64,000 nucleotides of DNA from Lepidodermella squamata (GCA_047495785.1 JBLDXI010000026.1:248001-312000); one strand, 5' to 3'; positions 17,608 through 42,866 are shown, counted from the stretch's first letter. A program made the numbers and translations. The notes: generated by a model from the letters alone, not told the origin.

Positions 17608-17694
17608 AGGAGGAAGTGTGAGGAGCTTAAAAAGAAACAACGTCAAAAGTTAATTTTAAATAATAAATTAGGACTCAAATTTTGGGTACTTTTC
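17608..17694 (+). repeat. Left terminal inverted repeat of the Maverick (partly re-duplicated at ~17721-17785)
   Basis: AGGAGGAAGTGTGAGGAGCTTAAAAAGAAACAACGTCAAAAG... is the reverse complement of ~39595-39681. Confidence 0.93.
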
Positions 17695-18121
17695 GAAGCT
17701 CAAATAACTAAAAATGACTAAAACAACGTCAAAAGTTAATTTTAAAATATAAAATCTGACTCGAAATTTTGGTACTTTTCGAAATCTGAAGCTCGAATAA
17801 AAAATGAGACTGGACTCAGGAATCGCGAACCGACCAAGCCAAGCAGTAAAAGGAAGATAGAATTTAGGTACTTTTAAATTCGAAATCAGCTAGGCTTATT
17901 ATTATCTTAAAATTCATTGATTTCGCACCGAAAAAAGGCATTTTTTAATCAAATCTATCTTAAATTTAGAGAAGCTGGAGCAAGCTGGAGCCGATGTACC
18001 TGTACGCAAAAGAAAGGCCGAGAGACTCGAAAAAAAGCATGAAAAATCACCGTTTAATTTATTGGAGTAAATATTGAACCCGAACCTTTTTTAAAACATT
18101 GAATGAAATCGATTGATAAAA

Positions 18122-18853
18122 TCAATACAATAAAATCGAATCATCGACGAAGGAATCTGACAGAAGCTTAAAATCAATGGGAATGTTATTTGCAAGTGAT
18201 TCTAACAAAGATGATTCATTTTGAGACGGCGAAACGGCGAAAGCTGCGTCTTCGCCAGCCCAGGCGAGGTAATATTCGAACGGTGGTGAGTCGATGTCGA
18301 TTGCGCTTAAGGTCGGCGTTGAAGATTGCAAAGGATTGGGCGAACAATCCGCGAGCGAGAATTCGGTGATTGAATCCTCGACGGAATCCTCGGGGTGAAA
18401 CGTTGGGTATGGCGTTGGCTTGCGATTGGCGACGCAGCGGGTCGAGGTAGGCGAATTTGGAGGCGGTGAGGTAACACAAGGCGTTGAAGGTGAGTCGCAA
18501 ACCTCAGACGGCCATGGAGACAACGTCATTGAAGAGCACGCCGAGATCGATCGGTCAGAAAGCGACGGTGATGGCGACGATTGAGACTCGCTTGACTCGG
18601 GAATGGACTCAACTGTTGGGTCGCCGAATGTTGTCAGAATTCGCGAGCGAAAGACGGGAGCCGACATGCTACCGCATCGAGGTTTAGTCGACTGCAGACG
18701 CCGAAGTGAGCAAGGTTGTTCAAAGCGACGGAGATTGTTGTTAGATGTCATTATTGCGCGTGAAAATGTGTATATATCAATTTCTAATGAGGTAAGGAAT
18801 AGTGGCTCAACCGGTGTTAAATATGCGGGAGACGAATAAAAGTGTGAGCTCAT
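18122..18853 (-). CDS. Maverick orphan Ser/Pro-rich protein with acidic-hydrophobic C-terminus
   Basis: 243-aa low-complexity ORF inside the element; no recognised domain. Confidence 0.5.
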   Translation of the reverse strand: MSSHFYSSPAYLTPVEPLFLTSLEIDIYTFSRAIMTSNNNLRRFEQPCSLRRLQSTKPRCGSMSAPVFRSRILTTFGDPTVESIPESSESQSSPSPSLSDRSISACSSMTLSPWPSEVCDSPSTPCVTSPPPNSPTSTRCVANRKPTPYPTFHPEDSVEDSITEFSLADCSPNPLQSSTPTLSAIDIDSPPFEYYLAWAGEDAAFAVSPSQNESSLLESLANNIPIDFKLLSDSFVDDSILLY

Positions 18854-19921
18854 CGGTGTATATAGCGCGCGCTTACTTCATCACACGATCTTTAAACACC
18901 TTGCGCAATTTGCGACTTGCGCGAGATGAGCTGACTATCTGAGTCGGAGGAAAAATACGGTTGAGAATAGAGATGCGACGAAACGCCGGCGCTTCTCGGC
19001 TGGTACTGGGTAAAAATGTCAATTTTCGAGCTATGTTTATTAAAACTATCACTTTAAAGTGTGAGGCACGGGAGTTCAACCGGGCGATAGCATCTCTGAA
19101 AAAGGAAGTGTGAGTAAAAACTTCGGTGTTTTTCATCTTTTCCAAATAAATACCCTCATATTCGTCTCATTTCAATCCATTACTCATATTTACGCGGTTT
19201 AAAGTTATATGTTTCCTCAATCGTTCGGCACTGTGTTGAGCTTCAACGAGCAATCTGCTCAGCCATCGCAAGCCCAGGCGCAAGTAGTCCAACAGGTACA
19301 CAATTTATTCGATTTTTGAAATCAGCTGTTTTTTTCAGTCAGCTGTGATGAGTGCGCGCGCATCGTTTGTCCTCGAATATGTTGCGCAATATGCGTCATA
19401 TTCGATGACTTACGGCGCACGCGTCTCGTACACAAAAGCTATTATAACAATAGAATTTTATCGCACTCATAATTACAACAACAATAGCAGGTATTTGTAT
19501 GCTATAACAAGAATTAAATGTTCATATCTGAAGCGCGTTAATCGAGATTTACGAATCGGAAGGAGTCTTAAAGACGACTGGAGATGAGTAAATCAAGATC
19601 GACAAGTTCAAATATGAAATATTTACGACTTTTATATCGTATGAATTGGTACTATTCCAGGGCCGAGCCGGGTTTAGCGATAATTTTCGTCGGGTCAGGG
19701 CTCTAGATTTCGTCCCGCGGTCAACTCGATCTATATACTGCGAGCGTAGTAATTTTCGTGATATATTTAAAGTCGCGGCCGATCGATTTCGGCTGATCGG
19801 CGGGTAATTTGACTTTTGTCAAACCGAGAAAACCGCGATAATAAATCTAAACTAAAATTACTACGCCTGCAGTATTATTGAGCAAAATTCCAATTCCAAT
19901 TTTATATGATTTAAGGGTGAG

Positions 19922-20470
19922 TTGCCGCGGAGATCACTCGAGTCACAGGCGAAAACTCTCGATCGAATTGTGAGCTTTGTATCATCACCGGCGTACAAGG
20001 GCATTCGCTATCGAGCTGTTGGTGATAACACTCACGTCTTTTTCTTGGGTAAAACAACTACTGCGGGAAGAGCAAGCACCACCCTGCCGACTATTGAAAA
20101 AGGTCTGTTCATGACCTTGGGTGAATGTCAGCAAATCTATCACGGGTTTCTCAGCAACGCGACCTGGCTCACTTCATTGCGAACAGCAATTCAAACAGCG
20201 GTAAATGAGAAGGAAAATGGGAAGAGTTACACTTATGACGCAATTACGCAGTCAAACAATAGCGCGATCGAAACGGCAACCACACCTATTTGTGGCGATA
20301 TTCGATGGTCACTTTTCCTCCCAAGTAAAAGCAAAAATGTTTTTGTTGACATCCGCCGGTTCAAAACCTACACTGATAATAAGTCAATAGCACTTCGAGA
20401 TGGGACGGCTATTCCAGTATCATTTTTTTCCGAAGTGGAATTTGTATTGAAACAAATGTTGGATATTTAA
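19922..20470 (+). CDS. PC4/Sub1-like ssDNA-binding protein, probably two PC4 folds; 5' exon uncertain
   Basis: VFVDIRRF...DGTAIP matches the PC4 pattern VDIRE(Y/F)...GISL; a weaker first copy KGLFMTLGECQQI; splice acceptor at ~19914. Confidence 0.55.
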   Translation: MPRRSLESQAKTLDRIVSFVSSPAYKGIRYRAVGDNTHVFFLGKTTTAGRASTTLPTIEKGLFMTLGECQQIYHGFLSNATWLTSLRTAIQTAVNEKENGKSYTYDAITQSNNSAIETATTPICGDIRWSLFLPSKSKNVFVDIRRFKTYTDNKSIALRDGTAIPVSFFSEVEFVLKQMLDI

Positions 20471-20520
20471 CAAAAATAATTCGGCAAAATATCTCTAGAA
20501 ACAAATTCTTTAAAAAAATG

Positions 20521-20643: not shown

Positions 20644-21049
20644 TAAGAGCGATCCAATAGTGAAGTGAAACTCATCTTTCTTCCTAATAATTGTATACAA
20701 ATTATGAAACTGTACAGAAAAATTGACGTGAAATTCAACCCAATTTATTGTTTATAATTATTGACAAGTCGTGAGCACTTTGAATCGAAATTGTATCGGT
20801 TCGAATTCCAGTGTTTATCTTGGATAAATTAGTAAAAATCAAATTAATCAAAAAATGTTTTTCATTATTAGGAATTTTTAATTTGAAAAAATTCCTGGAA
20901 AAAATCAGCAAAAAGAAACCACCAATCGCAAGGTAACAATTACTAAACGATGATTGATGCGTTAAAAATGTTCTTCTTTCAAACAGGTCTCAGAGGTAAG
21001 TTGAAGTAGAAAGAGTAATTGGTGATAAAGAAATTTCTTCTAAAATAGC

Positions 21050-24000
21050 ATGTCTGAAGATTTCGAAATCGTCCGCGATGAAACCATAAGTCAGAGATAT
21101 AACCTATCAACTTATGAAATTAGAGTTCAAACCGGGCAAGGTTCAGAAAATGATACCCTGACTCAATTTTCGCGGCTCCAGGAGACTTTTGATAGTATCG
21201 TATCTAGGTTAAAATCAAAGTTTCATATCGATTCGATGTGTCGAATAACGCTATTTAATTCAGAATTAGCTTATCCTATCTCGCTCGGTTATTACCGACT
21301 GGGAAGCTTGAGCGGAAATACGATTACCGCTAATGTAGAACGCGTTGCTCAATCTAAGGAGAGTTTAAAATTAGCCAAAAATTGGCGAGTGGAAGCTACT
21401 ATGGTCTTCCTCGATAAGAAGGTCTATTTAGGCGCCGGACCTGTTAAACAACGACGTGAAATTCAGAACTCGGCTCTGAAATGGCTGGCGAATCTAAGCT
21501 CGTTCATACCTGTAAATAACAGCGATGCATTATGCTTATTTCACGCTATCATTCTGGGCATCAGCCATGAAAAATATGCGTCTTACGTAGCTGACAAGAA
21601 TCGGAATTTAATTAAATATTTGGAAAATCCGCAGTTAGAGCAAGCCGGCTTAGAATTTCAATTTCTGAAAGAAGACAAGGTCCAGCTGCGAAAAAAAGCC
21701 AGACAGTTGTGCACTGAAGCTGGGTTCGACCCGGATTCTAAACAGTGCTGCTTTAGCGTTGATGATCTTCCTCAAATTATGCGTCTCTATCCTCAATATC
21801 AGGCTGTTGTGTTTTCCTTGCTAGAAGATCGGATAATTTTTGTTTGGCCTGATACGTCAGAATTCCAAGAGACCGAGCCAAAGCGGTTATATTTAATCTG
21901 GATATCTCCTAAAATACTAGCTTCTGAAGGCGCCACTATATACAATAATATAGGTCATTTCGCGGCTCTGAAAAACCTGCATCATGTTGGGCAAGGAAAG
22001 ACTTATTGCAAGTTGTGCCTAGTTCCAGTAACAAGATCGAACCATAATTGTTTATTTCGTTGCTATGCATGTTTTCAGCGTGTGAAGCCCGCTCAAAAAT
22101 TCAGTATAGGAGCAGCGAATATTATACCTAAACAACTAACTCGATGCTCAGACGATTTTTCCTTTAGTTGTTCAGAGTGCAATAGGTGTTTTTACAGCCT
22201 AAAATGCTATGAAAATCATCTGAAATTCAAAATTTGTGAAAAATTCGTCCGTTGTAAAACATGTGGTGATGTAAAGAGTCGTAGTAAAATTGCGTTACAT
22301 CACTGCCAAGGTCGAAAATGCCAGATTTGCAAGTCAGTTCTCGGACCTGATCACAAATGTTACTGGATCAGGCCCAAGCTGAAGCTCTCGCCAGTTCCAA
22401 ATCGCGTTCTCTTTTTCGATACGGAATGTTTGATAATGGATAATGGCGAGTTTTACCCGAGCACAGTGATTGCTGAATTTGCATGTGATGCATGCCGCGA
22501 TCTTGAAATTCGTCAATATCCGATAAATGGGAGTAAAATTTGCGTAAACGGGTGCTCCCAATTGTTCTTCTACGACGAGTATAACGCGTTTTCAAATTTT
22601 ATGGCTCACATCTGCCGTGAAGAATACAAGGATCTCACATGTATTTCGCATTACGGAGGTTAGGTTTTTCCTTTCATCATTTACTGGAAAAAAACTCGTG
22701 TTTTCAAGGGAAATTCGATACACTTTTCGCTTTGAGGTACGCACAAGATCACAATTTGAAGATCGAAACATGTGAGCGAGCGGGAAGAATCCTCGAGCTT
22801 AAAATCACTCGTGGTCCGCGGTATTTTTTTCACAATTTAAAGAAAAACATGGAAAATAAGAAATCGTTTTAGGTTCATTGATAGCTTCAATTATTTCCTT
22901 ACGAAACTCTCATGTCTACCTGCTGCATTCGGTATAGAGGGGATAGAAAAGCTTTCATACCCTCACAAGTTGCACAAGCGAGAAAATCTTCACAAAATTT
23001 TCAGCGAATGGCCTGGTATTGAATTTTATGATACTAGTAACATGGAATCCAGTGAAATATCAAGTCTGGAACAATTCATCAGCCATAAGCGCGAAAACAA
23101 TCAAAAGTTCGATTTCAAGTTGGAAACGTATCGATATTGCATGCAAGACACTGTAATTCTTCGGCTGGCGACGGGACGGTTTTTTAAACTAATTCAAAAT
23201 CTATCGAAATGCGAGTACGCGCCAAATGGTATTGATTGCTTCAAATATCTAACATTGTCAGCGATTTCGCACATCATTTACCGTGTATGTGAATGAAAAA
23301 ATAATGAAAAACCCCATTAATTTCTTCTTTTCAGATAAAATTCATGCCGCAAAAATCTATCAGGATAATGAATCCGCAAGGTTTAGCCCTAAGAGATGTT
23401 GCAAGTCAAGAAGCATTGCAGTGGCTTTACTATTATTCCAAAACTAATAATGTTGAGATAGAATCAGCACTGAACGGTAGTGAATGTCGACTAACCCTAA
23501 GCGATAAAACAATTCGTAAACCCGACGGGGTTGTTCGTAATCGGGCGACTGGGGAGGTTGAACGCGTCCTTGAGTATTACGGTTAGCGTTTTTTCGGAAA
23601 AATTAAGCCCAAGTTTTAAATCTGGTTTTTTCTAGGATGCGCCATTCACGGCCACCCAGCCTGCTTTCCAGAGAACCAATTTAATTTTTTGCTGCGAAAA
23701 ACGTTCGGAGAGCTGGCATATGACACTGCAAAACGCGAGGAGCAGCTGAGACAAAATAATTATAAACTGACAACGATTTATGCTTGCGAGTTCAAATCAA
23801 TGTTAGCGCGCAATCAGGAGCTAGCTAAAGCACTGGAGGCAGCTGTTTCCGTAATCCCGCCGATAAAGCCTCGATCAGCTTTGCTTGTGATAATTATTCA
23901 AAAATTACATTTTTAATCATAATTTTTTTTTTAATTGAAGGGCGGAAGGTGTGAAGTACACCGCTGTTTCTTCGAGAAAGATGCCAATACTAGCTTGTTT

Positions 24001-25512
24001 TACGTTGATATAAACTCCATGTATCCATTTGTTCTGTGGTCGAAAGACTTCCCGTGTCAAGATGTATCAATGCAAGTTTTAAGGTGGCGTTTGGATGATG
24101 CGAAATTGAGGGCAAAGTTTTTTGATACAACGGACCCAGCGTTTGGCCTGATATCTTGCAAGATAGTACCAAACGCTGCTTTGATAATTCCCTGTCTCCC
24201 ATGGAAATACGAAGATCGATTAGTATTTATCAGTTGTAGGACTTGCTACGTCGAGAAAAATTCAAAAACGAGATGCAATCATAATGATGAAGAGCGTGCT
24301 CTAACAGGTGTGTGGACTACTGAAGAGGTACGTATGGCTGTCGAGAAATTCGGGTATAGCCTTCAATCCGTTTTCGAAATATGGCACTACGAGTCCCGAG
24401 GAAATTTGAACTTTAAGGATTTTATAATATCGCTTCAAAAGCTCAAGTTGGAACATACACAAATAGCCGCTAATCTTGACGTAGAGAAATATGTGTCTGA
24501 TTGCCGAGCGAAGTATGGTATCGATTTAGACACGCAGGCTATGCTATCGCCGAATCCTGCTATGAAGCAGATATCGAAGATCCTACAGAATAGGTAGATG
24601 GCGTTGTTTTTTAGCACTGGTCTTGGTCTTATATCCCTCGTAGCTTTTACGGCAGATTTTGTCTCCGAAGCAATAATTCTACTGTGAAATATCTTGATTC
24701 GCCAGAGCAACTTATAGATCTGTTCGAAAGTCCAGGGAAAGTTGTTCACACCATACTGCCAGTTGGCCCTGATGACGAATCTCAACGAGTCCGCGTTTCA
24801 TATTCCGATGCTCCAGATCACGAACAACCCTGTCCGAGCAATTCAGAGATAATAGCCGCTTTCATAACGTCGTATGCAAGAATTTTGTTGTACGAAGAGG
24901 TTGAAGGAAGCTATTCGAAATCAATAATTTTTAAAGCTCTTTGCTTTCTAGATGGCTCGACTCGGTTCGAGGGTAGTCTATTGCGATAGTAAGCATTTTT
25001 TCAATTTCCGAGATTTTTTTCAAATTCAATTTTTTAAGCGGATTCCTTAATTTACACGCATCAAGAGGGCGAGTATAAAATTCCAGAGGGACCCTTCATG
25101 GGTGAATTCAAATCGGAATTAAGCGATGGCGAAATCATTGAATCATGGGTTTGCATCTCGCCAAAGTCATACTCATTCGTAACTAATTTCAGGTATCGAT
25201 GAAAAAATAATTTCACTGCGGATTTTTCGAGGCTTTGATATTTTCAGATCTGAGCTCAAGTTCAAAGGAATAACTCAGAGCCTCGCAGGGAAAAAATTGT
25301 CACATGAATCTTTAGTCAAGCTGTTATTTGAATCATTGAGCGAATCTGCGCATCCATCTCTGACTCTTGATCAAACCAGATTCCACCGGCGGCACGTTCC
25401 GGCTTCAGTGACTCTTGAAACGCTTGAAAAAAGAATAGCGCCACATTTGAATGATAAACGAATATTTTGCCCTACATCCTTTACTTCAATACCTTACGGG
25501 TACCGGGTATAA
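21050..25512 (+). CDS. pPolB: Protein-primed family B DNA polymerase (group 2), 10 exons, ~1331 aa: 21050-22658, 22709-22820, 22873-23284, 23335-23581, 23636-23886, 23941-24593, 24644-24899, 24952-24988, 25039-25192, 25248-25512
   Basis: vOTU (SDALC..GHF), CxxC fingers, ExoI FFDTE, ExoII HYG|GKFD, R|FIDSFN, ExoIII YCMQD, VSR-like EYYG|CAIHG, L|GGRCE, motif A DINSMYP, motif B KILQN|SFYG, motif C YCD|TDS, PKSY, KFKG, DKR..PYGY; spliced length 3996 nt is a multiple of 3. Confidence 0.95.
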
Positions 25513-25544: not shown

Positions 25545-25997
25545 ATGTCAGACAGCATTTCACCGGATCGATTGGCTCCTGAGAGTGTAGCCTCTTACGA
25601 GTTTGTAAATTCTGAAGTTACCTGTTGCATTTGCCTTGGAATCATGCTTACACCTGTACACATTTCCAACTGTCAACACGCATTCTGCGAAACCTGCATT
25701 TGTCGATGGGGCGATCGAGTTGAAGCTGGTAAAAAAGGTGGTTTGGTGGCGTATATGTACTCGAAGGCTACTTGCCCGAAATGCCGCCAATTATATACTT
25801 GCTTGGATCTCACCCCTGGGCCGGCTGTTGTAGATCGATTAGTCTCCCTTTTGCAGTTTAAATGCGTGAATGAAAAGCGCGGATGCTCAGTCAAAATGGA
25901 CTATCTCAGTCTCATGGAGCATCAAAAGAAATGCAATAAACGGAAAGTACCAAAATATACTGGAAATTTTAAATTTCTTCGTCAAAAAGCTGATTAG
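25545..25997 (+). CDS. C3HC4 RING finger + TRAF-type zinc finger protein (putative E3 ligase), 150 aa
   Basis: CCICL..PV...CQHAFCETCI..W...CPKCR followed by CVNEKRGC..LMEHQKKC. Confidence 0.88.
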   Translation: MSDSISPDRLAPESVASYEFVNSEVTCCICLGIMLTPVHISNCQHAFCETCICRWGDRVEAGKKGGLVAYMYSKATCPKCRQLYTCLDLTPGPAVVDRLVSLLQFKCVNEKRGCSVKMDYLSLMEHQKKCNKRKVPKYTGNFKFLRQKAD

Positions 25998-26103: not shown

Positions 26104-26441
26104 ATGAAAAGTTCGTACATTTTGGAGCTTAAACTGACGAATGGCAGTACTTTCTACACGACTTTCGATGAATCATCGACACTTGCTGACATCATAGCAC
26201 ATCTACACGCTGCTTGGCCGCCAAAATGGGGCGACAAGCTTGACCTGGATCAATTACAGCTCTACTGCAAAGATCGCGCAATCAGAAAGTCGGTGCTGCT
26301 CAAGTGTAAGTAAATTTCTACCTTTGAACCGAGCTTGATGATTTTCCAATCCTAGCATTGAGTCGCCGCGAACTACATGGCTACAAGCATCGCACTTATT
26401 ATGTCACTATTGTCTCAAAAAGCCCTCTTCCCGAGCTTTGA
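26104..26441 (+). CDS. UBL3/MUB-like ubiquitin-fold protein 1 (intron 26306-26355)
   Basis: LKLTNG..F...TLADIIAHLHAAWPPKW...LQLY; the WPxxW..LxLxY signature of UBL3. Confidence 0.7.
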
Positions 26442-26513
26442 ACTTTCTGCTAATGTATAGTAAAGAAAAATACTATATTCGAGCTTGTTTTAAACTTAGA
26501 TTTGTAACTTAAA

Positions 26514-26759
26514 ATGGAACCTCAGGCTTTTGAGGAATTTTCAGCTAATGTCGCTTGGAGAAATGGAGATCAAATTAGCTTGCGATGCCATGCGTCAATA
26601 AAAGTAGACGCTATCCTACAGCAGATATATGACGAATGGCCAGATAGTTGGGGTGAGAAGCCGCATGTGAAAGAACTCCGACTATGTTACAACGGTAGAT
26701 GCTTGCATAGGTTCTACAAACCAATAAGAAAGTATTTCCCAAGTATTTCCCAAGTGTAA
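26514..26759 (+). CDS. UBL3/MUB-like protein 2 (possible extra 3' exon to ~26860)
   Basis: IYDEWPDSWGEKPHVKELRLCYNGRCLH vs UBL3 VYDNWPMDW..ILRLIYQGRFLH. Confidence 0.75.
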   Translation: MEPQAFEEFSANVAWRNGDQISLRCHASIKVDAILQQIYDEWPDSWGEKPHVKELRLCYNGRCLHRFYKPIRKYFPSISQV

Positions 26760-26907
26760 TTGTTTTTATCCAACAGAACTCTGCAACTATCTCCGAGTGA
26801 ACGTTTTGGAGCTGACAGCTACAGCGCTTCATGTCTAATGATTTTCTGCTATGTATAAAAGATGGGTAAAAAAAGGGATCTTTTTAATTTTAGAAACATT
26901 TGAAAAA

Positions 26908-27165
26908 ATGACTAAATGGAATTTGAAAATTCGTATCGATAAGCGATTGAGTCCGAAATTAACTCTCAGAACGATTGGCGATCTTAAGGTAAATTCTCAA
27001 TTGCGAATCCCGCTAATTATAAGAATTATACTCTGGCAGGTTTTGTTTATACGCAATTGTCCATGCCAACCATGCGTGATTGTCTCTGGAACGACAAAAG
27101 CGAAGATCTTTCGTCTATCTGACATTGAGACCGCAATTTGCTTTTACAAACAGCGTGAAAATTAA
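26908..27165 (+). CDS. Small Maverick orphan protein (probable in-frame intron 26989-27039)
   Basis: ATG after a TTTTAG acceptor; 51-nt GTAAAT...GGCAG intron; CPCQPC motif. Confidence 0.4.
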   Translation: MTKWNLKIRIDKRLSPKLTLRTIGDLKVNSQLRIPLIIRIILWQVLFIRNCPCQPCVIVSGTTKAKIFRLSDIETAICFYKQREN

Positions 27166-27222
27166 GTCGTGAAAAAAGTGATTCAGGAATGGTTTTTTTA
27201 TCTTAGGTTATAAAAATAATTG

Positions 27223-27573
27223 ATGGAAGCATCTCAAGATTGCGATTGGAGCAGCTGCGAATCCCTTGATTCTTGCAATTCTGTTGATTCTTCAACTCAA
27301 ACTTTGCCTTATGAGCCGAACTCTTCAGCTCTTCTCCTCAGGTGGGTTACTGGCGCTAAGGTCATCATAAAATGTCGAAAGTCGACTCAGATGCGCGAAA
27401 TTTTGAATAAGCTGTGGGAAAAATGGCCCGATGGTTGGACAAGCCGGCCTTCGGACCCCAGAAAATTGAAAATTTACTACGGCCGGCTCAACATTCAAGA
27501 CTTGACTAACGTCTACGAATTGAGCAAGGATCTTGACAAACGTCATTTGGTATTCAACGTACGCTGCGAGTAA
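27223..27573 (+). CDS. UBL3/MUB-like protein 3
   Basis: LLLRWVTGAKVIIKC...LWEKWPDGW...LKIYYGR...VFNVR. Confidence 0.72.
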   Translation: MEASQDCDWSSCESLDSCNSVDSSTQTLPYEPNSSALLLRWVTGAKVIIKCRKSTQMREILNKLWEKWPDGWTSRPSDPRKLKIYYGRLNIQDLTNVYELSKDLDKRHLVFNVRCE

Positions 27574-27672
27574 TAGTTCATCACAATTCAAACAGTTGAA
27601 ATCTGTATTAACCTGAATAATTGACGCAGTAAAATTAAATGGTTATGATATTCTTTTTTAGGCGAATTAATA

Positions 27673-28023: not shown

Positions 28024-28073
28024 TAAAGTGTTTAATTAACTCTGATTTTTCTAGTGCAGTTAACTAAAATCGC

Positions 28074-29439: not shown

Positions 29440-30305
29440 CGATCTGGCTTTGGAATCCATGCTGCCCATCCGCCGCTTTGTCCGCGGGTTTTCGGAGGTG
29501 ATGTCAACACTCGAGGATTCGTCGCCTTTATCGATCCCGCATCGACTATTTTGTGTAGTCGTTCTGCTGAATCCGTTGTCAATGGAGCATTCGTATCCGT
29601 AATATTTTGTAGGAACTCTAACAACGGCCATGAATCAACTACCGTTCCCGAATTCGGACTTAACAGATTGATCGTTTTATTTGGTGAAATTACAACCCTC
29701 TTGGACCTATTGGGTCCTTTCAAATCACTAAGTATCTTAGTCACCAGCAATCTCCGAGTTTTCGACTGGAAGCTATCAATGATTTCTTTAAAGTCCAAGG
29801 GTTTTTCAGGAGATACCTCCTCGCCCTGTTCTATTTTGGGAGAGCGAGTTGCTAACGGAGTTGTAGGTCGTTGCTTCACAGGGGATAAATTAGCTTCAGT
29901 CTCGCTTATCTCATTTTCATCCTCTAATGGATCATTAGATTTGGGTTCTGATTTTGTCTCTGCAATTTTTAATTCGCTTACAACGCGCTGAAACTCGCGG
30001 AAGGCAGAGTTGAATTTGTACAGCTTCCGACGAGCGTCTTCCTCTACATTGTCGGAAGATGACAATGCAGTTAGCATTTGCATTGCGTTACGCTTCAGCA
30101 AGCCTTTCTGCGCAGGTTCAGATGCTTCCTTGATTAATCGTTTACTCTCTGTCTCAACGGTATTCTTTGCGTCGTCATGCTTTAGCGCTCCTGGAACAAG
30201 GGCATAACGCTTTGCAAACTGGCCGAATCCACTCATTTTCGTGTGGCTTTGACAATTGCTTCGACCACTGTGGGAAGTATTCCTAAAATTGGTCTCATTT
30301 ATCAA
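29436..30305 (-). CDS. Conserved-position Maverick protein (PZ-like); probable start at MSGFGQF
   Basis: AKRYALVP N-terminal motif; last gene of the morphogenetic block. Confidence 0.5.
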   Translation of the reverse strand: MINETNFRNTSHSGRSNCQSHTKMSGFGQFAKRYALVPGALKHDDAKNTVETESKRLIKEASEPAQKGLLKRNAMQMLTALSSSDNVEEDARRKLYKFNSAFREFQRVVSELKIAETKSEPKSNDPLEDENEISETEANLSPVKQRPTTPLATRSPKIEQGEEVSPEKPLDFKEIIDSFQSKTRRLLVTKILSDLKGPNRSKRVVISPNKTINLLSPNSGTVVDSWPLLEFLQNITDTNAPLTTDSAERLHKIVDAGSIKATNPRVLTSPPKTRGQSGGWAAWIPKPDR

Positions 30306-30315
30306 TTTTTTTTAA

Positions 30316-30648
30316 TTAAAAAATAAGCAAACCAGCTACGGCTGACAATAGCGGTACTACAAAAGCTGCCCCGCCTTTCTGAACTATGTACTGACGATTA
30401 CTGCTAACAGTTCGCTCGCTTTCACCTAATTTTCTGATAGATTTACTAAATCTTCGCAGCTTTTTCGCTAATCTCGGCGAAATCTGAAGGTTCTTGTTGA
30501 GGAGATTGAGGCAAACTTCGCTTATAATTCTGATGACCGTATCCGGAGCAATAGATAACAACTGCCTACGCCGATCAATAGATTTTGCTCGAACTATTTC
30601 TCTTATAAAACCCAAAACGCGCTGCGATTTATCGTATGACTTGCGCAT
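30316..30648 (-). CDS. Conserved small basic Maverick protein (PW-like) with QKGG putative protease site
   Basis: IISEVCLNLL...LRRF..SIRKL...QKGG followed by a hydrophobic tail. Confidence 0.75.
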   Translation of the reverse strand: MRKSYDKSQRVLGFIREIVRAKSIDRRRQLLSIAPDTVIRIISEVCLNLLNKNLQISPRLAKKLRRFSKSIRKLGESERTVSSNRQYIVQKGGAAFVVPLLSAVAGLLIF

Positions 30649-30704: not shown

Positions 30705-31448
30705 TTATTTCGGTACATAAATTACACCAGGGAAAGCGCCCACCCCAGTTCTATAGCGCATAAACTCCGGACAATCAGGACTGAGGTCGATAAGTAAGTA
30801 ACGATGTCCGCCTTTGCTTGTTTCCATTTCGAAACTCTCCACTACGAACCGCCAGCGCAGCGGTTCCAATTGCAGGGCGAGATAGCGGAACGATGTGAGA
30901 TCTGCACGATGCCGAAAAATGAATAAATATTTAGCATTCAGCGTCATTTCTTTGGACATTTTTCCTTTGCAGAATATTGCTTGCTGAGTAAAAAATACAG
31001 ATAACTTCAAATGATGAGAGTATCGATAAAATAATTGAAGAATTTTCGGATCGTTTCTTCCTGTATCATACAAGTCATCTATCACTAACAATGTATAAGT
31101 ATCATCTCCACTGCTTGATTGGAATTCTTCAAAGTTTAGTTGCTCTAGACCTTTGCGAAACTCAACAGTAAGACCACGGCTTTTTTCTACTTCATCCTTT
31201 ATTTGCTGATGCATCCCGGTCTCAACCCCGTAAAACCATAACACTCGATGCGGCGCTGGTGATATGGATTCCGGGTCGTTAAGAATTCGTCGAATAAGCC
31301 ATGTTTTGCCTAATATACATAGGATGAAATGAGATAATATTTATGAATCGCACAACTAACCTGCGCCGCTAGGACCTATAACGAGCGAGCAGAAAGGGGC
31401 TTGCAAGCTAAGCGATACATCTATTTCTGATGGCAAATCGCCAGACAT
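30705..31448 (-). CDS. ATP: A32/FtsK-like DNA packaging ATPase, 2 exons (intron 31310-31360), 230 aa
   Basis: Walker A GPSGAG|KT is split by the intron; Walker B LLVIDD; YSHHLKLSVFFTQQ; YLLID. Confidence 0.92.
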
Positions 31449-31996
31449 GACTGGTGACCGCTACAGGTACCGAAATGACGGGACATTTTCTCAGATTTGC
31501 TAACTTTAAATATTCGATTCACCTGATCAACTATGAAATTATCCGTATTTTTATCAGGAAGCATTTGCGCAATCTTATCCATAGATGCTCCCCTCGCGAA
31601 CCAGTGAAGCGTTAAATATGCGTAGTAGCCACAAACCGCCGTTGAATCGCTCTGATATTTATGCTTGTTATAAATGTAATTATTTTTCGAGTTGATGTTC
31701 GTTAAAAATGCTTCTATAGCCTTGTTATAGAAGTTCCCGCGCCGACCATAGCTATCAAAGAATAAAGCCGGCTCGTTTGTTTGTGGGACATAAATTGACA
31801 GCCAATGACTTCCCGGCTGACCAGCGGCGTCTGTATTTACAATTAGAGCCATGGGACGCTCGCTCATCCCCTGATATCGTGATAGATAATCCCATGGTAT
31901 AGTCTTTTTAACTGGAATTTTATTGAGATTTCTATCACAGCCAAGTAGACAGTCCAACTGGAGGGTATTTAGTTGACCTCCGTTCATGCTATTCAC
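31421..31996 (-). CDS. PRO: Adenain-like (C5) maturation cysteine protease
   Basis: IVNTD...GSHW, FFDSYG, YQ.....VCGYY (H-D-Q-C). Confidence 0.93.
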   Translation of the reverse strand: MNSMNGGQLNTLQLDCLLGCDRNLNKIPVKKTIPWDYLSRYQGMSERPMALIVNTDAAGQPGSHWLSIYVPQTNEPALFFDSYGRRGNFYNKAIEAFLTNINSKNNYIYNKHKYQSDSTAVCGYYAYLTLHWFARGASMDKIAQMLPDKNTDNFIVDQVNRIFKVSKSEKMSRHFGTCSGHQSCLAICHQK

Positions 31997-33282
31997 GTAA
32001 AGTCGACCAGGACGTTTCGTGCAAAATTCAGCTCGATAACTTGATCCGTCTCAAAGTAACAGAGAAGTATCAGGTTATCGGCTAATGCTTTTTTAAATAA
32101 TAAATCAATAGAAAGCACGCCACTTTTAACCAGACTGTATGCACTACGACTTGAGTCGGGTGAGAGATCGAATCCTATAAAGGAAAAGCCGTCCTTGCTG
32201 TATTCTGATAGCTTTATACCATTTGTTTTAGTCGAGTAAGGAAACAGCGTCTCCCTAAGAGCACTCATAGCCCGAGCCGATGTATTTTCGCCCTCTCCAA
32301 ATTCGAGCGGGCTGTTTGGGACATGCTCGCTATCTATTGTGACAGACACGCGCTGAACGCCAGCGTTTTTAAAGTTGTAAGGACTGGTGAAGATGTCGCC
32401 TTTGAAATCACTATCGCTAACGAAAGACATCACCAGTCGTCTGGGTATTTTCCCTAGTATAACGTGCCCAAGGTTGTAGTTAAGAGATCCCTTTTGCAAA
32501 TTCAAGACTTTAATGAACGATCTGTTCACACCATACTTGGCCGTGGTTTTTGTTAGTGTTCGATTCAGCGCCAACGTAAATTGCGGAGATACGCGAACGC
32601 GACGCAATTTGAGCTTAGCATCAGTAACTGTTAGTGTATAGTCCATCTTGTCCCCGGCAGGTTTCATCAGAGCAAACGCCTCAGGTGCGCGTATGAAAGT
32701 CAACTTGAAGGGCGTAGCCGGAATCAGAAATTTCGGCTGAGAGAATAGCTCTAAATGTGGCTTGCCTATAAGAACCATCTCGCCTTGCTTTGCCCAAGCA
32801 AGTCTGGCGGTATGACCCTTGCCAGCAGGATCGCTGACTTTACCAGCTTCGTCTGAATAATAGCCTTGCAATGCCAAGTAGCTATCCTTAGCTGTCGGAT
32901 CACAACTCAGTAAAGTTGAAATATAAGCCTTATAATTATATGTCGGAGCCGGTTCGCTGATTTGCGTATTATTTATGCTCATATCTATTTGACTGAACAT
33001 ACTATGCAACAGAAGGTTAACCGGCGAGCAAGTAAGGTCAGCTAAAGTCTTTGACGCGTCGCCATTCACTATTTTACATGTTATTTCCACGTATGAACGG
33101 CTCAAATCTGTCCAATCATTGCTTGGAGGGATGTCAAAATCAATGCGTGACTGATTGGCGATCGCGGAAACTGGTCCATATTCTGTAATGTAATTGCTCT
33201 CTATCTCAACTTGAGTAGGGTTCAACGAAAAGACATTCAGCTCAGCGCGAATTGCGTTTTCAGAAGAGGGGTGGACGTACAT
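31993..33282 (-). CDS. PY: Double jelly-roll major capsid protein
   Basis: ELNVF..PTQ, DLSRSY, PVNLLLHSMFSQID, YNYKAYI, SPYNF, GFDLSPD; 429 aa. Confidence 0.92.
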   Translation of the reverse strand: MYVHPSSENAIRAELNVFSLNPTQVEIESNYITEYGPVSAIANQSRIDFDIPPSNDWTDLSRSYVEITCKIVNGDASKTLADLTCSPVNLLLHSMFSQIDMSINNTQISEPAPTYNYKAYISTLLSCDPTAKDSYLALQGYYSDEAGKVSDPAGKGHTARLAWAKQGEMVLIGKPHLELFSQPKFLIPATPFKLTFIRAPEAFALMKPAGDKMDYTLTVTDAKLKLRRVRVSPQFTLALNRTLTKTTAKYGVNRSFIKVLNLQKGSLNYNLGHVILGKIPRRLVMSFVSDSDFKGDIFTSPYNFKNAGVQRVSVTIDSEHVPNSPLEFGEGENTSARAMSALRETLFPYSTKTNGIKLSEYSKDGFSFIGFDLSPDSSRSAYSLVKSGVLSIDLLFKKALADNLILLCYFETDQVIELNFARNVLVDFT

Positions 33283-33333: not shown

Positions 33334-33796
33334 TCAGAAGGAAACGCGTTTTGTGCTCCTCTTTTTTTTCGTTGGCATTTTTTGTTTGGCTACGTACCGA
33401 CGACGACGACGCCGACCAGTTCCGATTTGCGAGCCTACTCTAGATATTACATCTTTTGCAACTCCCTTTAACCCTTCCACTGCACGTTGTTTCAAAATCG
33501 CTCTGGGATTGGCATCTTTGTTTTCAAGAAGATCCGTTGCAATGTTGGCTGTTGTATGACTCAAATTCCGAAATATCGGTCCAAGTAAGGGAATGATATG
33601 ATTGCGAAAAAACCCAGCAGCTACGCTCCCGAACCCGTTTCCTGTCTATACTAACACATTTTACACATTTTCACCGATTGTTACCGATTATTTTTACCTG
33701 GTATGAAGGAAAAACGATAGACTGTCCGCGAAATGGCTCTATCCCATATCCACTTTGTTGCAACAAAAAAGACTCGTAAGCATCGGCTGAATACAT
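33334..33796 (-). CDS. Small basic virion core/membrane-active precursor with QxGxG motifs, 2 exons (intron 33646-33697), 136 aa
   Basis: QSGYG, YQ|TGNGFG..FFRN..IPL, QIGTG followed by an Arg/Lys-rich tail. Confidence 0.75.
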
Positions 33797-33897
33797 GTTT
33801 TATTTAGCTTTGTGTACAGTTTAAATCGAACCTAACTAATCCATTGTCTTTTTTTACAGCTGAGCTTTCCAACTTTTTCTAAAAACGGATGAATGGC

Positions 33898-35588
33898 TCA
33901 TAAATAAATAAATAAATAAATAGCAATAGGTCTAATCTGAACTAATATAACAGCCTTACCACTAACGAATTTTACAGGTAATCCAGAGTCTTTATATATT
34001 TGAATCTCAATAACAGACAAAACGCGACGTTTAATTGGGACAAATATGGGTTTTTCAAAAGTTTTCGAAAAAAAGCTTCCTTTGTCTATCGTTTTTTCCG
34101 TCGGAATTACTCGCAACAGGGGTGTGCGGGTATTTCCGACATACACGTCATCAATTACGTCAGCGTACAAGAATAAGAAGGGCATTCCGTAATCAAGCTG
34201 GGGTGGAAATCTTGCGATCGCTTGATCGTCAACATGATGGATTGTGTAGAAATATTCTATTATCGATACAGGTTGCTCTTCGTGACTTGGCGGGTTTTGG
34301 TCATTTTGCGGACCAGATGGCTGAATTTCGACCGATGGGCTAGGAGCACTTGATGACCGCTCTTTCACCGCTGTGCCGCTCTGATCTGACTGATCCATCG
34401 ATGACTCGTCTGGCTCACTTTCATGCTGGTCTAGATCAACATTATCGTCAGGATTCTGATGTGTTGTCTCGTCAGGTAACAAATCTTTCTTTGCTGGATC
34501 CGTCGCTTTGTCTGACTCATTCTTCACAACTTCATCGTCACCAACCGCAGGGTCAGCCGGTTGATTATCATCTGGCTTCGCGGTCACTTGTTCATCTGGC
34601 TCAGCAGTCACTTGTTCATCTGGCTTCGCAGTCACTTGGTCTTCCGTTGACTCGCCAGGCTTCTTATTATCACCCGATGGAATTGGCGGAAGCTTTCGCT
34701 TTCGTTGCGGTGGGTTACTGTCATTCGATACCTTTTTATCATTCGGATCTTGCCTATTCTCAGCTTCCGTCTCATCCTCTTTATCGACCTTTTTCACATC
34801 ATCGTCAGCTGGGGGTGGCAACTCTGCATCTTCATCGGATCTTCGAGATCTAACTTTACCGGGTACTCTTTCCGGTAAAAATAGCCCACCTTTGAATCTA
34901 ACTTTGTTGAATTCATTCACATCTGCTGATATGGAACGGTATGGTATTCTCTGCCTACTTCCAGTAACGACATAGCCAAGCATTAGCCTGAACGCTGCGC
35001 CCATTTTAACCACGTCATTTGAAAACCCTTCGTCCTTTCTATCGAATTTGTGGAATGCAACAAAGGCACCAGGGTACCCTAAAACTTGCGCGAGTTCCTT
35101 AGGTATAAATATTCCCCATTTACCAATGGCGACCTTCAGTGACACGCGATTTGTGATTTGCACGTACTCAAATGTAATATTCTTCGTTATGCTCTGAACT
35201 TCCTTCTCCATGTGAGTAAGCAATTCTTCTATGTTGGAGTAATATACTCCTCCGACCTGGCATTCATGCAGATTTTTCGTGTCAAATGGATCCGGAGCTT
35301 TGTATGCATCAGGTTGTTCCAACCATTCGCAATCAAAAACGTAAAAATTTGTCGGTTCTATCGACTCCCAAGCTGATGGACCGTTAAATTCCACGAGACC
35401 CATTTCCCATTGACCTAAATTTTTTTTTAGTGCGGGCTATAAGTGACTTTCATTTTTATCATACCCACTGTGCCAAGATCAATATCGTTGGCCAACTTGA
35501 CGCGAAATGACGACGCTGTGTTGTCAGGAAACAGATCGTTGGATGCGTTCGATGGTAAGTAAAGTAAAAATTCTTGCCGCGCGCTCAT
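33898..35588 (-). CDS. PX: Minor capsid (penton) protein, 2 exons (intron 35415-35464), with a large acidic insertion
   Basis: N-terminal FLLYLPSNAS..FPDNT..FRVKL..G|QWEMGL; C-terminal LYADVI..VGN..PLLRVIP..IEIQI..G.PVKF. Confidence 0.88.
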
Positions 35589-35818: not shown

Positions 35819-35899
35819 TTATCGGCGATGCACGCGTTTGTTACCGCGTTTGCGTGCTGTGGATTTTCGTTTCCGGATAGCTCGTCTAGGACCAGGCAT
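35819..35899 (-). CDS. 26-aa protamine-like peptide MPGPRRAIRKRKSTARKRGNKRVHRR (not in the ORF track)
   Basis: ATG overlaps the integrase TAA; its TAA abuts the next ATG; 13 of 26 residues are Arg/Lys. Confidence 0.55.
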   Translation of the reverse strand: MPGPRRAIRKRKSTARKRGNKRVHRR

Positions 35900-37164
35900 T
35901 ACTTTCCCCTCTTTTTGGCCGATTTTCGCTCCTTTATATATTCATTTTGGACGTCTTTTATTTGGTCAATTGGCTCCCATGAACTTTGAGATTTGGGAAA
36001 CCCAACCCAGCTAACTAAAACCCGCGTTGTTCCATCCTTGAATTTTCGCTTCTCTTTACTCACTTCATCTATCAGGTATTCATCCGGTAATTTGACTTTT
36101 TGAAGCTCATAGTGATAAAAAACGCCTGCAACAGGTTCGGTGTAGTCGCCGTTTTCTGTGCTCCATCCATTCAACTTGTATGTATGCGGCCCGTACCTGT
36201 CTGGCTTGATGGCTTTCGCTATTTTGAAATACTCATCCGTATAAGTAAAATGACGAGCGCGGGCAAAAACGCCTCTCTCTGCTGAGATCCGTACTACATC
36301 GTCTAATTTAAAAGCTGATGGCTGCCTGCGACCTTCTTCTATGTCCGCTCCGAAAACGTTATTGTAAGCTATATACTGCTTAGGGCTGTCCTCGAAAATA
36401 TCGAGATTAAGCTCCTTGTCACTCCCGATTTTACGCCCACTCTCCTTGTCATTGTACAACTCTGCGGGTGTGAACTTGGTAGATGAGTGACGGGAGTCAT
36501 TGTAAACTCTAACGATGTTCTGCAAATCATCGACGAATCTACCGTCGTTTCGCGCCATCGCAAGCTTAGCCAGTCGCATGCGCAGTAATTTGTTGAATGA
36601 CTCTATTTGAGGAACTTTCTTTTCCGAATTCGTAGCGAAAAAATGAATGGATTCTGATTTCAAATATCGCTCAACGTGTTGGTTGAAAAATTCTGAACCT
36701 CTATCGAACACAACAGCGTACGGTTTTTGCTTAGCGTCCTTCATAACTATTTTCAGAGCTCTAAGTGTTTCGGGACCGGTTTTATTTCGCATCGTTTGCA
36801 CCCAGGCGAAACGACTGTATGTGTCCTTGGCTGTAAGTATATATTGCACGTTGTCGTTCTCGCCCTTTACATTTCTCACGTCCACCAAGTCCATAGCGAA
36901 CAAACTTCTTCGACTAAAGCATGCCACCTTCCGGGTTACTCGATTCCTCGTTCCGACCTGCTTATAAACGCTCCACGTACGTTGATTTCCCAACCAGTTC
37001 CTTACTTGCCGCATTGTGATCTTTCGACCTGGATACTTGACCCTGTAGGCTTTGTAAAGAGCTGATACGCTACCGAGACCGCCTGGTTCACCCGGGTCGA
37101 AGTAAATTTTTCGCAAATCTCGGTCATCTTGATCTAACGTTGGCATTTTCGTTGTATATTCCAA
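35899..37164 (-). CDS. INT: Retroviral-like (rve) integrase with C-terminal chromodomain; probable ATG at 37146
   Basis: IYFDP..PGG, DDE triad MDLVD / FDRGSEF / IESFNK, YNDSRHSS, VRIS, chromodomain VLVSWVGFP...SWEP. Confidence 0.95.
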   Translation of the reverse strand: MEYTTKMPTLDQDDRDLRKIYFDPGEPGGLGSVSALYKAYRVKYPGRKITMRQVRNWLGNQRTWSVYKQVGTRNRVTRKVACFSRRSLFAMDLVDVRNVKGENDNVQYILTAKDTYSRFAWVQTMRNKTGPETLRALKIVMKDAKQKPYAVVFDRGSEFFNQHVERYLKSESIHFFATNSEKKVPQIESFNKLLRMRLAKLAMARNDGRFVDDLQNIVRVYNDSRHSSTKFTPAELYNDKESGRKIGSDKELNLDIFEDSPKQYIAYNNVFGADIEEGRRQPSAFKLDDVVRISAERGVFARARHFTYTDEYFKIAKAIKPDRYGPHTYKLNGWSTENGDYTEPVAGVFYHYELQKVKLPDEYLIDEVSKEKRKFKDGTTRVLVSWVGFPKSQSSWEPIDQIKDVQNEYIKERKSAKKRGK

Positions 37165-37201
37165 CTCTAGCGTTTTGCGTTTTAAATAGTGACATTCTGT
37201 A

Positions 37202-38116
37202 ATGGAAAAGTATTCTTACATCCGAGCTATTGGCTCAGGTTCTTTCGGCACTGTCAGTTTACAGCGCAACATTCCCCTAAATCGAATGTTTGCAGTGAAA
37301 ATGATAGATACTACGATCCCCTACAAACTCGAGTCTGCCACTCGGGAAATTGAGTGCCTGCAAATACTAAAATCTGCGCCAAACGTTATTAGGTAGGCGA
37401 CTGATATTGTTTTGACCACCGAATTACTTAAATCGTATAGACTGCATGAGGTTGTGTTCACCACTCGACGTGCATTTCTTGTGCTGGAATGTCACCTCAT
37501 GGATATGAAATCCTTGATTGGAGTGATAACTCGACCCTGGCCACTTGTTCTACTAACCCGATGGTTAAACCAGCTTTTGACTGCTCTTGCATATATTCAC
37601 GCTTGTGGAATAATTCATCGCGACATTTGCCCGCAGGTTTGTCAGTTTTTGTCTTTCAGCCAAGTTTTCAACACCTAATTACAGAATGTACTCCTGCAAA
37701 CCAGCTGGGTCGATGTATCCCTCGCTGATTTCGGCATTTCGCGAACACTGCCCGACGACACCTGCCCAGATATGACCCCGGAAGTTACGGCGTTTCACTA
37801 CCGAGCGATCGAAATAGTATTCCCTAAACCTCGATATACGAATAAAATTGATGTTTGGTCCCTAGCTGCTACAACTATTGAACTTGTTACACTTGCACCG
37901 TTTTTCTCCGCTCAATCTACTGTCAACATATTCAATAACATAAAATCTAAAACTTCCAGTCTTGATGATTTCTTTAGGTGTTTGAACACATTCGTTCACT
38001 GCGATTTCACCGAGTACAGGCAATTGCTTGAGCTACTGTTCTCAATGCTCAATAACAATCCTGAATCTCGTCCATCAGCAGATCAATCTCTAATTCTGCT
38101 CAATGCAATCTTATGA
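37202..38116 (+). CDS. CDK-like (CMGC) Ser/Thr kinase, 3 exons (introns 37393-37440, 37637-37684), 272 aa
   Basis: IGSGSFG, FAVK, SATREIECL (PSTAIRE-like), HRDICPQ|N, LADFG, TPEVT..YRAIE, DVWS, RPSA. Confidence 0.9.
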
Positions 38117-38750
38117 TATCAACATTTCGGTTTCCAACATTGTCGCAACCTTCAACGTTGGAACTCCCATAGATCTACATCTCCTTGCTCAGCGTGGGGT
38201 TAATACGTTCTTCGATAGCAGGCAAATACCCGTATCAGTAAAGATCCGATTCCCCAGTCACATTTCAGCAATGGTTTACTCATCAGGCCATGTTATAGTC
38301 ATTGGAGGAAAAGGGTCGAAGGACACTGCGGATTTTGAATGCAAAGCCTTGGTCATCTTACACAAGCTACGGAATTGGATGTCAATTCCTTCTCTAATCT
38401 TCGATCGGTTTAATATTAGAAACATTGTCATAACAGGACAGCTACCTTTTCGATTTTTGCAAATTTCAACACTGTATTCGGAATTTTCATCGGTGAAAAT
38501 GCCAGGATTCAAAATTGTTTACATACCTGAAATGTTCTGCGCTATGAGACTTACCATCAATAATGTGAAAATTAGCTTTTTCCCAAGCTCTCATAAGTTT
38601 AATGTTGTCGGCGTTAAAACATTAGATCATGGGCTGAATATTGTTCGTACTTTTGTCCAGCTCTGCATTGATATTCACGAAAAAGAGTTGACTGATTTGG
38701 GGTTAACCGAGCTAGATTTACTGTTCCTGAATTCCTGTTTCAATAATTAA
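38103..38750 (+). CDS. TATA-binding-protein family protein (divergent TBP/TRF2-like)
   Basis: Two TBP half-repeats: SNIVATF...IDL...AMVYSSGHVIVIG and FNIRNIV...YIPEMF.AM...SFF.S.KFNVVG. Confidence 0.8.
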   Translation: MQSYDINISVSNIVATFNVGTPIDLHLLAQRGVNTFFDSRQIPVSVKIRFPSHISAMVYSSGHVIVIGGKGSKDTADFECKALVILHKLRNWMSIPSLIFDRFNIRNIVITGQLPFRFLQISTLYSEFSSVKMPGFKIVYIPEMFCAMRLTINNVKISFFPSSHKFNVVGVKTLDHGLNIVRTFVQLCIDIHEKELTDLGLTELDLLFLNSCFNN

Positions 38751-38784
38751 AAATTTATTATTCTTAGACAAGATTTATTGAGTC

Positions 38785-39396
38785 ATGGCATTGTCCGCAC
38801 CAGGTGTTGAGCTGACTGTTTTCAATATAAATCCGCAACTGAACCTCGGAATCGATAATATGCCCAATGGACACTATCTTCGCAATCAGCAGGTGGAAAA
38901 ATTACGAGCTGTGAAATCTCACTTTCTAAGGACAATGCACGGCTCTGTTGTTGTTGACATTGTATCTGGAAAATCCGGCGTTTGCGTCCTCCTACCTTAC
39001 GTGCTCAAATCTAGCAGAGTTTTGGTGATTACGCCTTCTCAAGACATTACACGACAACTAGCATGGGATTTTACCGGAAATTTGAAACCTGAAACAGCCT
39101 TCCTGTTTCGCGCAGGCGTTTACACCTTCTGGAAGACATGGCCGACCATCATACCTAAATGTTGCATTTTCGATCACTCTTACAATTTTAATCAGGATTT
39201 CAACCCACCACCTCTCTTCATCACCAACAGCTTTGATTTGAACCTTATCCCTCTAAATCTTTTCGATTTAGTAACCGTTGTTAACGCACAAGATTTTCTA
39301 CTTTCATCTTTGAAGCTCATCGCGGAACGTTTTAAAAAGGTCAAAGTAGTGTTCCTTGCAGACCGTAAGATTGCCGATTTCAACGTTATTATGTAA
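38785..39396 (+). CDS. Degenerate SF2/ResIII-like helicase N-terminal domain
   Basis: LRNQQ (Q motif), SGKSG (altered Walker A), RVLVITP..ITRQL; FDLVTVVNAQ where DExH is expected; no second RecA domain. Confidence 0.6.
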   Translation: MALSAPGVELTVFNINPQLNLGIDNMPNGHYLRNQQVEKLRAVKSHFLRTMHGSVVVDIVSGKSGVCVLLPYVLKSSRVLVITPSQDITRQLAWDFTGNLKPETAFLFRAGVYTFWKTWPTIIPKCCIFDHSYNFNQDFNPPPLFITNSFDLNLIPLNLFDLVTVVNAQDFLLSSLKLIAERFKKVKVVFLADRKIADFNVIM

Positions 39397-39594
39397 CACT
39401 AGACTTGGGTGTCAGGTACTGGTTTCAGGTTCTTTTCTATTAATCCATGTTGTTAGCCCCATTAATGTCCATGTTCGATGATCCATTGATCAATAAAAAT
39501 GAGATTCCGTAACGTGTTTTTTTGCTCGAGCGTCAAATAGGTGACTACCAGACATTCTAGATTTTTTGTTCTGAGATAGATTTCATAAAGTACC

Positions 39595-39681
39595 ATAAAG
39601 TACCAAAAATTTGAGTCCTAATTTATTATTTAAAATTAACTTTTGACGTTGTTTCTTTTTAAGCTCCTCACACTTCCTCCT
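39595..39681 (-). repeat. Right terminal inverted repeat of the Maverick
   Basis: ...TTTTAAGCTCCTCACACTTCCTCCT, reverse complement of the left TIR. Confidence 0.93.

Positions 39682-42815: not shown

Positions 42816-42866
<51 letters not shown>

Follow-up and report, generated by a model that had tools for sequence, protein, structure and literature searches.

The DNA analysed here is a window of 64,000 nt from Lepidodermella squamata (GCA_047495785.1, JBLDXI010000026.1:248001-312000), whose positions are used throughout, and it contains at 17608-39681 a Maverick element of 22,074 nt bounded by inverted repeats. Its gene content is that of a Maverick with a double-jelly-roll major capsid protein (MCP). 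The protein-primed family B polymerase gene (pPolB) lies on the plus strand, and the genes for the integrase, the minor capsid protein, a small basic protein, the MCP, the protease and the ATPase, together with two further open reading frames (ORFs), on the minus strand, all of them pointing inward, while the cargo comprises RING, ubiquitin-like, metallophosphoesterase, kinase and TBP-like proteins. All core frames are open, and the ExoI, DDE, Walker B and protease motifs are present. The polymerase gene (21050-25512) runs from an ATG at 21050 to a stop codon at 25510-25512, and was identified by PF03175 matches on two exons, a profile score of 834 bits and the ExoI motif FFDTE.

Nine GT-AG gaps, totalling 467 nt, interrupt pPolB, and their removal leaves exactly 3996 coding nt in ten exons of 1609, 112, 412, 247, 251, 653, 256, 37, 154 and 265 nt, which confirms the continuous frame proposed in an earlier note made by a model from this DNA alone. 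When the exons are read with an X at each break, no internal stop appears and the product covers states 67-1272 of the 1307 of a profile derived from 57 homologs of 1000-1560 residues, the top matches P0029 and P0030 having been excluded as internally repeated models. The profile register is gap-free across seven of the nine junctions and one state short at the other two, which fall in variable loops. A spliced aligner provided only with the profile and the GT-AG rule recovered all nine donors and eight of nine acceptors, placing the acceptor of intron 2 12 nt upstream and in-frame, while on the decayed loci L005 and L011 it called frameshifts, not introns.

All these introns lie on the plus strand. 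Intron 1 (22659-22708, 50 nt, phase 1) splits the ExoII motif, HYG-X-KFD, and intron 2 (22821-22872, 52 nt, phase 2) has its in-frame alternative acceptor at 22860. Intron 3 (23285-23334, 50 nt, phase 0) is followed by intron 4 (23582-23635, 54 nt, phase 1), located in EYY-X-C, and by intron 5 (23887-23940, 54 nt, phase 0), just before the GGR motif. Intron 6 (24594-24643, 50 nt, phase 2) interrupts polymerase motif B, KILQN-X-FYG, and intron 8 (24989-25038, 50 nt, phase 1) the catalytic motif C, YCD-X-DS, with introns 7 (24900-24951, 52 nt, phase 0) and 9 (25193-25247, 55 nt, phase 2) on either side of the latter. The surroundings of the introns are more conserved than random places in a windowed test (P = 0.008). 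Shortly before the pPolB ATG, a mini-exon of 9 nt stands between two probable leader introns, 20933-20986 (54 nt) and 20996-21048 (53 nt), also on the plus strand; they were called on splice score (above the 99.5th null percentile), and the region may be an untranslated region or a short coding leader.

Altogether 19 GT-AG interruptions of 47-55 nt were counted, 12 in core genes (the nine of pPolB and one each in the ATPase, minor capsid and core-like genes) and seven in cargo genes, the two probable leader introns being additional. The earlier count of at least 18, with the same distribution among core genes and at least six in cargo, is thus upheld, although its size range of 48-55 nt must be widened. 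The A32-like packaging ATPase gene (30705-31448, minus strand), recognised by Atlas features at 0.95 to PF04665 clusters and by a match to L083 (E = 9e-26), carries a 51-nt, phase 1 intron at 31360-31310 inside its Walker A motif, GPSGA-X-KT; a word search with the ATPase exon found no homolog. L083 is an intronless Polinton contig that matches the ATPase, the protease and the minor capsid protein of the element. The minor capsid gene (33898-35588, minus strand), which we take to encode the penton from its position and a motif, contains a 50-nt, phase 1 intron at 35464-35415, and both its ends match an unbroken L083 ORF (E = 2e-8 and 6e-9) that has the integrase on one side and the MCP on the other. 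The ATPase and penton breaks sit within motifs that are continuous in L083. The second penton exon also displays, at 34300-34900, a long low-complexity insert with 24-nt repeats (546 positions vs 273 in L083) that may form a spike or stalk.

The small basic gene at 33334-33796 (minus strand), which is presumably the core gene, has an open frame after removal of a 52-nt, phase 0 intron at 33697-33646, and no homolog of it was found. Among the plus-strand cargo, a calcineurin-like metallophosphoesterase gene (28523-29439, PF00149) has three introns (28592-28639, 29002-29048 and 29282-29332), supported by frame and splice score, and a protein kinase gene (37202-38116, PF00069) has two of 48 nt (37393-37440 and 37637-37684), its exons lying in register with Pfam states 1-61, 63-127 and 128-257. 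About six small tandem genes at 26104-28415 (plus strand), several of them ubiquitin/SUMO-like with weak PF13881 matches, include two with one candidate intron each (26306-26355 and 26989-27039). Four of the 19 introns (that of the core-like gene, the first of the metallophosphoesterase and those of the two small genes) were called from open frame and splice score alone.

On the contrary, the MCP, protease and integrase genes are single open frames, as the earlier note had stated. The MCP (31993-33282, minus strand, 429 residues) has 27 homologs at 23-36% identity, and its structural model (predicted local distance difference test score of 85) finds its best folds in the MCPs of mavirus, PBCV-1 and Sputnik (E = 3e-15), while related-locus scans with it gave no match. 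The adenovirus-type cysteine protease (31421-31987, minus strand, 188 residues) matches PF00770 (E = 0.001) and L083 (E = 1e-14), and the rve integrase (35899-37146, minus strand, 415 residues) matches PF00665, contains the DDE motifs and ends in a C-terminal chromodomain (PF00385). Two unbroken ORFs of 266 and 110 residues (29436-30648, minus strand) presumably occupy the places of PW and PZ, one of them weakly matching an ORF of L008 (E = 0.008). Also uninterrupted are the RING-finger gene (25545-25997, plus strand, PF00097) and, at 38094-39396 on the plus strand, a TBP-like gene (PF00352, 38094-38750) with a 203-residue ORF weakly matching ResIII (PF04851). Near the left end, a GC-richer Ser/Pro-rich ORF of 243 codons (18125-18853, minus strand) has no Pfam match.

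The viral introns were then compared with 23 host introns of the same window, chosen by eye from three-frame views. In agreement with the host-like size described earlier, their median length is 50 nt vs 53 nt in the host (range 40-62, Mann-Whitney p = 0.22), and both sets share GT(A)AGT-like donors, TT-YAG-like acceptors, GC content and AT-rich interiors. In a host-trained splice-site matrix, each of the 19 viral introns reaches at least the 90th percentile of 498 chance GT-AG pairs (p = 7e-13), and a random place offers a suitable GT-AG pair with a probability of 0.08-0.11, which for nine together gives about 1e-9. Ends, length, splice consensus and AT-rich interior are thus those of U2-type host introns, and, judged on these features, the interruptions are very likely host-type introns that the host major spliceosome would remove.

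The terminal inverted repeat (TIR) arms extend over 17603-17692 and 39597-39686 with 98% identity, and from 17608 and 39681 inward 76 nt are perfect. The TIRs proper, at 17608-17692 (plus) and 39597-39681 (minus), are 85 nt long, shorter than usual for Mavericks/Polintons, and bear the repeated end motif AGGAGG...CCTCCT, with AGG-AGG at the left end and a partial internal copy at 17721-17783. A 6-bp target-site duplication is absent outside either end (13 offsets tried, best match 3/6), which weakens the case for a fresh insertion made here by the integrase and leaves the assignment by gene content unaffected. The element can therefore be described as intact in its open frames, its catalytic motifs and its TIRs, the flanking repeat being the exception; it also falls outside the usage of PMC8097293, in whose available portion intact means intronless core ORFs, as 12 introns are present in four core genes.

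The window is compact animal DNA, with glutamate receptor, adducin, CAP, trypsin and ankyrin genes, three ANF-receptor frames and introns near 50 nt. The left flank of the element is the ankyrin gene, whose frame is cut off at the element end (17580-17607), and the right flank (39682-39699) could give a few last codons, a geometry that could reflect insertion without duplication or two flanks from different loci. The ANF-receptor paralogs (2337-4817, 6344-8776 and 11754-14438) are unbroken over 810-894 codons (2.4-2.7 kb), while other genes have about three introns per kb. An element resembling a miniature inverted-repeat transposable element lies at 42246-43120, with perfect 26-nt inverted ends and an (AC)n run inside, and a near-perfect tandem array of 9.3 copies of a 60-nt unit, with several frames open, at 15026-15583.

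A 13-kb contig of X1, a DNA-type run that may be the source of the window, has identical gaps and shows two differences relative to it, at 23292 (pPolB intron 3) and 31348 (ATPase intron), both intronic though introns make up 6.4% of the stretch (P = 0.004, for a small sample). Short X1 contigs reveal at least two further Maverick families, about 80% identical, at 30796-31082 (ATPase), 32720-32883 (MCP) and 23971-24028 (pPolB). In the diverged co-resident ATPase-like contigs, third codon positions account for 22 of the 31 differences (P = 2e-5). Both patterns speak for constraint on the coding frames. Another run, X2, gave only short chance matches to the window.

Related polymerase loci were then scanned over their first 8 kb, 82 in all (80 from metagenomes, the best 80 of 212 confirmed, plus two viral contigs). 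At least two frame-breaking GT-AG gaps were found in seven, four of which were retained (L008, L009, L012 and L013) as representing three families, since L012 and L013 are 99% identical and were counted once. L019 and L021 (seven frameshifts each) and L061 (score 146) were dropped, and of ten loci with one gap only L007 has a possible intron. Intron-rich regions of this second clade lie at L008:332-1934 and at L009:4184-6455 and 9281-9334. Their pPolB introns, of 64-151 nt, are AT-rich within GC-rich exons and occupy 11 distinct positions, some common and some family-specific, the motif C intron having a GC-AG donor in L008 and L009 and GT in L012/L013. Several aligner calls were corrected by eye: in L012, state 731 to 753, an upstream stop having misled the aligner; in L008, 1170 to introns at 1141 and 1168; and in L009, 843 to 845 and 1142 to 1141, where the intron is GC-AG. 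Long N-terminal calls, three of them in L009, as well as two in L007, fell within open frames and were rejected. Second-clade polymerases are 22-26% identical to that of the window, and among themselves these families share introns at 50-75% identity. The pattern of the window is repeated there: L009 opens its pPolB with a long exon free of breaks (ORF of 1074 codons), the catalytic half is intron-dense, Walker A is split by one intron of 54-55 nt in L009 and in L013, and integrase, MCP and PZ/PW-like frames are open within contig reach. Another locus, L002, is a 167-kb viral contig with two tandem pPolB-like genes.

Comparison of positions yielded near coincidences. Introns 3 and 4 of the window polymerase each lie 1 nt from an L009/L012 intron, intron 5 lies 1 nt from an L008 intron and intron 8 lies 3 nt from an intron of L008, L009, L012 and L013, while the Walker A intron of the window ATPase lies 4 nt from that of L009/L013 (P = 0.013). 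Thus, the spliced alignment to relatives suggested by the earlier note recovered near positions in a distant clade, but none of the nine pPolB positions is identical, nor is the ATPase pair, and the GT-AG rule bars moving the window intron ends onto second-clade positions. The pPolB near-pair test was chosen after seeing the data, and the ATPase pair emerged later. Since such near pairs cannot coexist in one gene, they point to parallel gain at hot spots or to sliding from shared ancestors. In a quick tree of 28 rows, a clade of the intron-rich rows alone is rejected by the approximately unbiased test (p-AU 0.002). Both this distant clade, with the same layout and near-coincident positions, and the leader introns are new relative to the earlier note.

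That the introns are gains, as proposed before, is supported by the intronless relatives: L083 for ATPase and penton, and L001, L003, L004 and L006, with uninterrupted pPolB. Intron interiors are unlike each other, their flanking exons or the rest of the 64 kb (the best score was reached by 4 of 40 shuffles), which argues, within one window, against a single recent burst of gains. The introner-like similarity that the earlier note had put forward for checking found no support: no mutually similar intron families were detected, and a tandem-duplication origin likewise gave no signal in the window. Breaks are preceded by G in 14 of 19 cases and followed by G in nine.

Considering these data, the reading that we regard as probable is that host Pol II makes the transcripts, that the major spliceosome processes them and that the element has gained its introns stepwise in the germline, where DNA copying would have kept them and hot spots would have shaped their positions. 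Transcription would take place in the nucleus, and introns would have been acquired one at a time over long germline residence. Its own polymerase would copy the element at the DNA level without any reverse-transcribed stage, which would make a cleanly spliced intron hard to lose and produce a ratchet, while selection would maintain the coding frames. Preferred sites of gain would be G|G proto-splice contexts, and a few motif positions (ExoII, E-x-x-G-C, GGR, motif C and Walker A) would be hit repeatedly in Maverick lineages that are only distantly related; the introns of cargo genes may instead have arrived with captured host genes, and no regulatory role would be necessary.

Several observations weigh against this reading. 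The nine introns of pPolB are all confined to the last 60% of the gene, past nt 1609 (P = 0.01), and their enrichment at motifs depends on the test, a strict invariant-column test not being significant (P = 0.11-0.13). Assembly errors could account for the two differences to X1, and present mobility is put in question by the missing target-site duplication and by the lack of a second near-identical copy among the X1 contigs. The pPolB near pairs exceed nulls weighted for conservation and G context (P 0.0001-0.003), so that plain neutral gain is an incomplete explanation. One origin of the introns also fits if three full-length relatives, whose gene structure is unestablished, join the intron-rich group (p-AU 0.40).

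The first three of the alternatives partly overlap with stepwise gain. Adaptive, splice-dependent control, which we hold to be unlikely, would have the introns mimic a host gene or gate the polymerase and the packaging motor, leaving capsid, protease and integrase unspliced for bulk or independent expression. The repetition of the layout in the distant clade, from the intron-free first pPolB exon to the one Walker A intron and the open PZ/PW-like, integrase and MCP frames, speaks for such control, but the splice sites are ordinary, not weak, the intron sequences have nothing in common and the first pPolB intron differs in place between clades (state 512 vs 681); moreover, the host keeps its three receptor frames unbroken, so the intronless state is tolerated here.

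Ranked after it, and also unlikely, is the proposal that the introns are ancient or targeted, either ancestral positions that slid by 1-4 nt or homing-type mobile introns that targeted invariant motifs and were afterwards reduced to host size. The five near pairs (P ~0.001 for pPolB and 0.013 for ATPase) and the failure of the tree to reject the wider clade would fit it, and sliding is, in the available text of PMC2891723, a documented source of near intron pairs. Preference for conserved sites is described in the accessible part of PMC2814812 as typical of inteins as well as group I introns, but not of spliceosomal ones, and spliceosomal homing introns are reported for mirusviruses in that of PMC12768974. 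However, several exact matches would be expected under shared ancestry and none of nine is seen, five slides and many complete losses would be required, none of the introns (47-151 nt) contains an endonuclease ORF, and the pPolB statistic is post hoc.

Quite improbable is a domesticated or stranded copy, immobile and acquiring introns as a resident host locus. It would agree with the missing duplication, with the truncation of the ankyrin gene at the left end and with the absence of a second near-identical copy in X1, as well as with the view, found in the available portion of PMC12768974, that endogenous giant viruses show assimilation by carrying introns. Nonetheless, 76 nt of TIR are identical, core frames are open with their catalytic motifs and second-clade families share introns across polymerases 50-75% identical; 19 mutually unrelated introns indicate a long history, which the TIRs of a dead copy would not survive. 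Finally, decay or assembly artefact deserves practically no credence, the earlier note having already rejected decay: although the stretch was found in a single run that may be its own source, the X1 contig has identical gaps, truly decayed loci yield frameshifts with the same aligner, and random insertions or errors are rejected by the GT-AG ends, the small spread in size, the resemblance to host signals, the exact register and the chance of about 1e-9.

In a wider and tentative perspective, animal Mavericks may include a large hidden spliced class, in which unrelated lineages repeatedly gain introns only a few bases away from shared catalytic sites (polymerase motifs and Walker A) while capsid and integrase remain free. 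If so, this would point to site-directed spliceosomal intron gain, or to a splicing latency switch, in a 20-kb element trackable copy by copy. Intron gain in animals is a long-open question; with ancestral genes free of introns and intron content varying by family, Mavericks offer dated, countable cases. Introns also make the replication gene dependent on the nucleus of the host and on a spliceosome suited to them (their length is 50 nt here and 64-151 nt in the second-clade polymerase), a dependence that could limit horizontal transfer.

No description of spliceosomal introns in animal Maverick core genes was found in the literature, although Repbase, Kapitonov and Jurka 2006 and supplements, which were not covered, could hold some, and the available portions of PMC10748475, PMC12220804, PMC11296320, PMC8502044 and bioRxiv 10.64898/2026.07.28.741278 do not mention them. 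As the earlier note anticipated, surveys that demand intronless genes, as the available text of PMC8097293 (Barreat and Katzourakis 2021) does for vertebrate Mavericks, and that use prokaryotic ORF finders, as in the protist survey of PMC10120064, where such a caller was chosen because these viruses "do not contain introns", would score spliced families as fossils or miss them.

According to the same portion of PMC8097293, vertebrate Mavericks share with the window element the core set of pPolB, ATPase, integrase, protease and major and minor capsid proteins, two converging strands and TIRs with a repeated 3-nt end motif, but their core genes are intronless. Nematode Mavericks (Widen et al., bioRxiv 10.1101/2022.07.12.499685), as far as the available text describes them, similarly carry intron-bearing cargo, kinase included, while their core genes are stated to be intronless; unlike in them, no fusogen is found among the Pfam matches of the window element. 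Dinoflagellate eupolintoviral proviruses (Gozashti and Corbett-Detig, PMC11957031 and PMC12166617) resemble it, in the accessible parts of both papers, in having intron-type insertions in full-length Maverick-like proviruses; however, theirs are recent repetitive introners in protist hosts, about 25% of them in coding regions, in proviruses of uncertain intactness, whereas the element described here has unrelated, host-sized introns, in register and inside catalytic motifs, in an animal host. Mirusviruses (PMC12768974) and the punuivirus (bioRxiv 10.64898/2026.10.09.758095) are, from the text available of each, dsDNA viruses of the nucleus whose own genes contain many GT-AG introns and for which a ratchet has also been considered, although they belong to other virus phyla and infect protists. 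In mirusviruses the introns are reported there as enriched in morphogenesis genes, while in the window element the MCP gene is free of them and it is the polymerase gene that is loaded.

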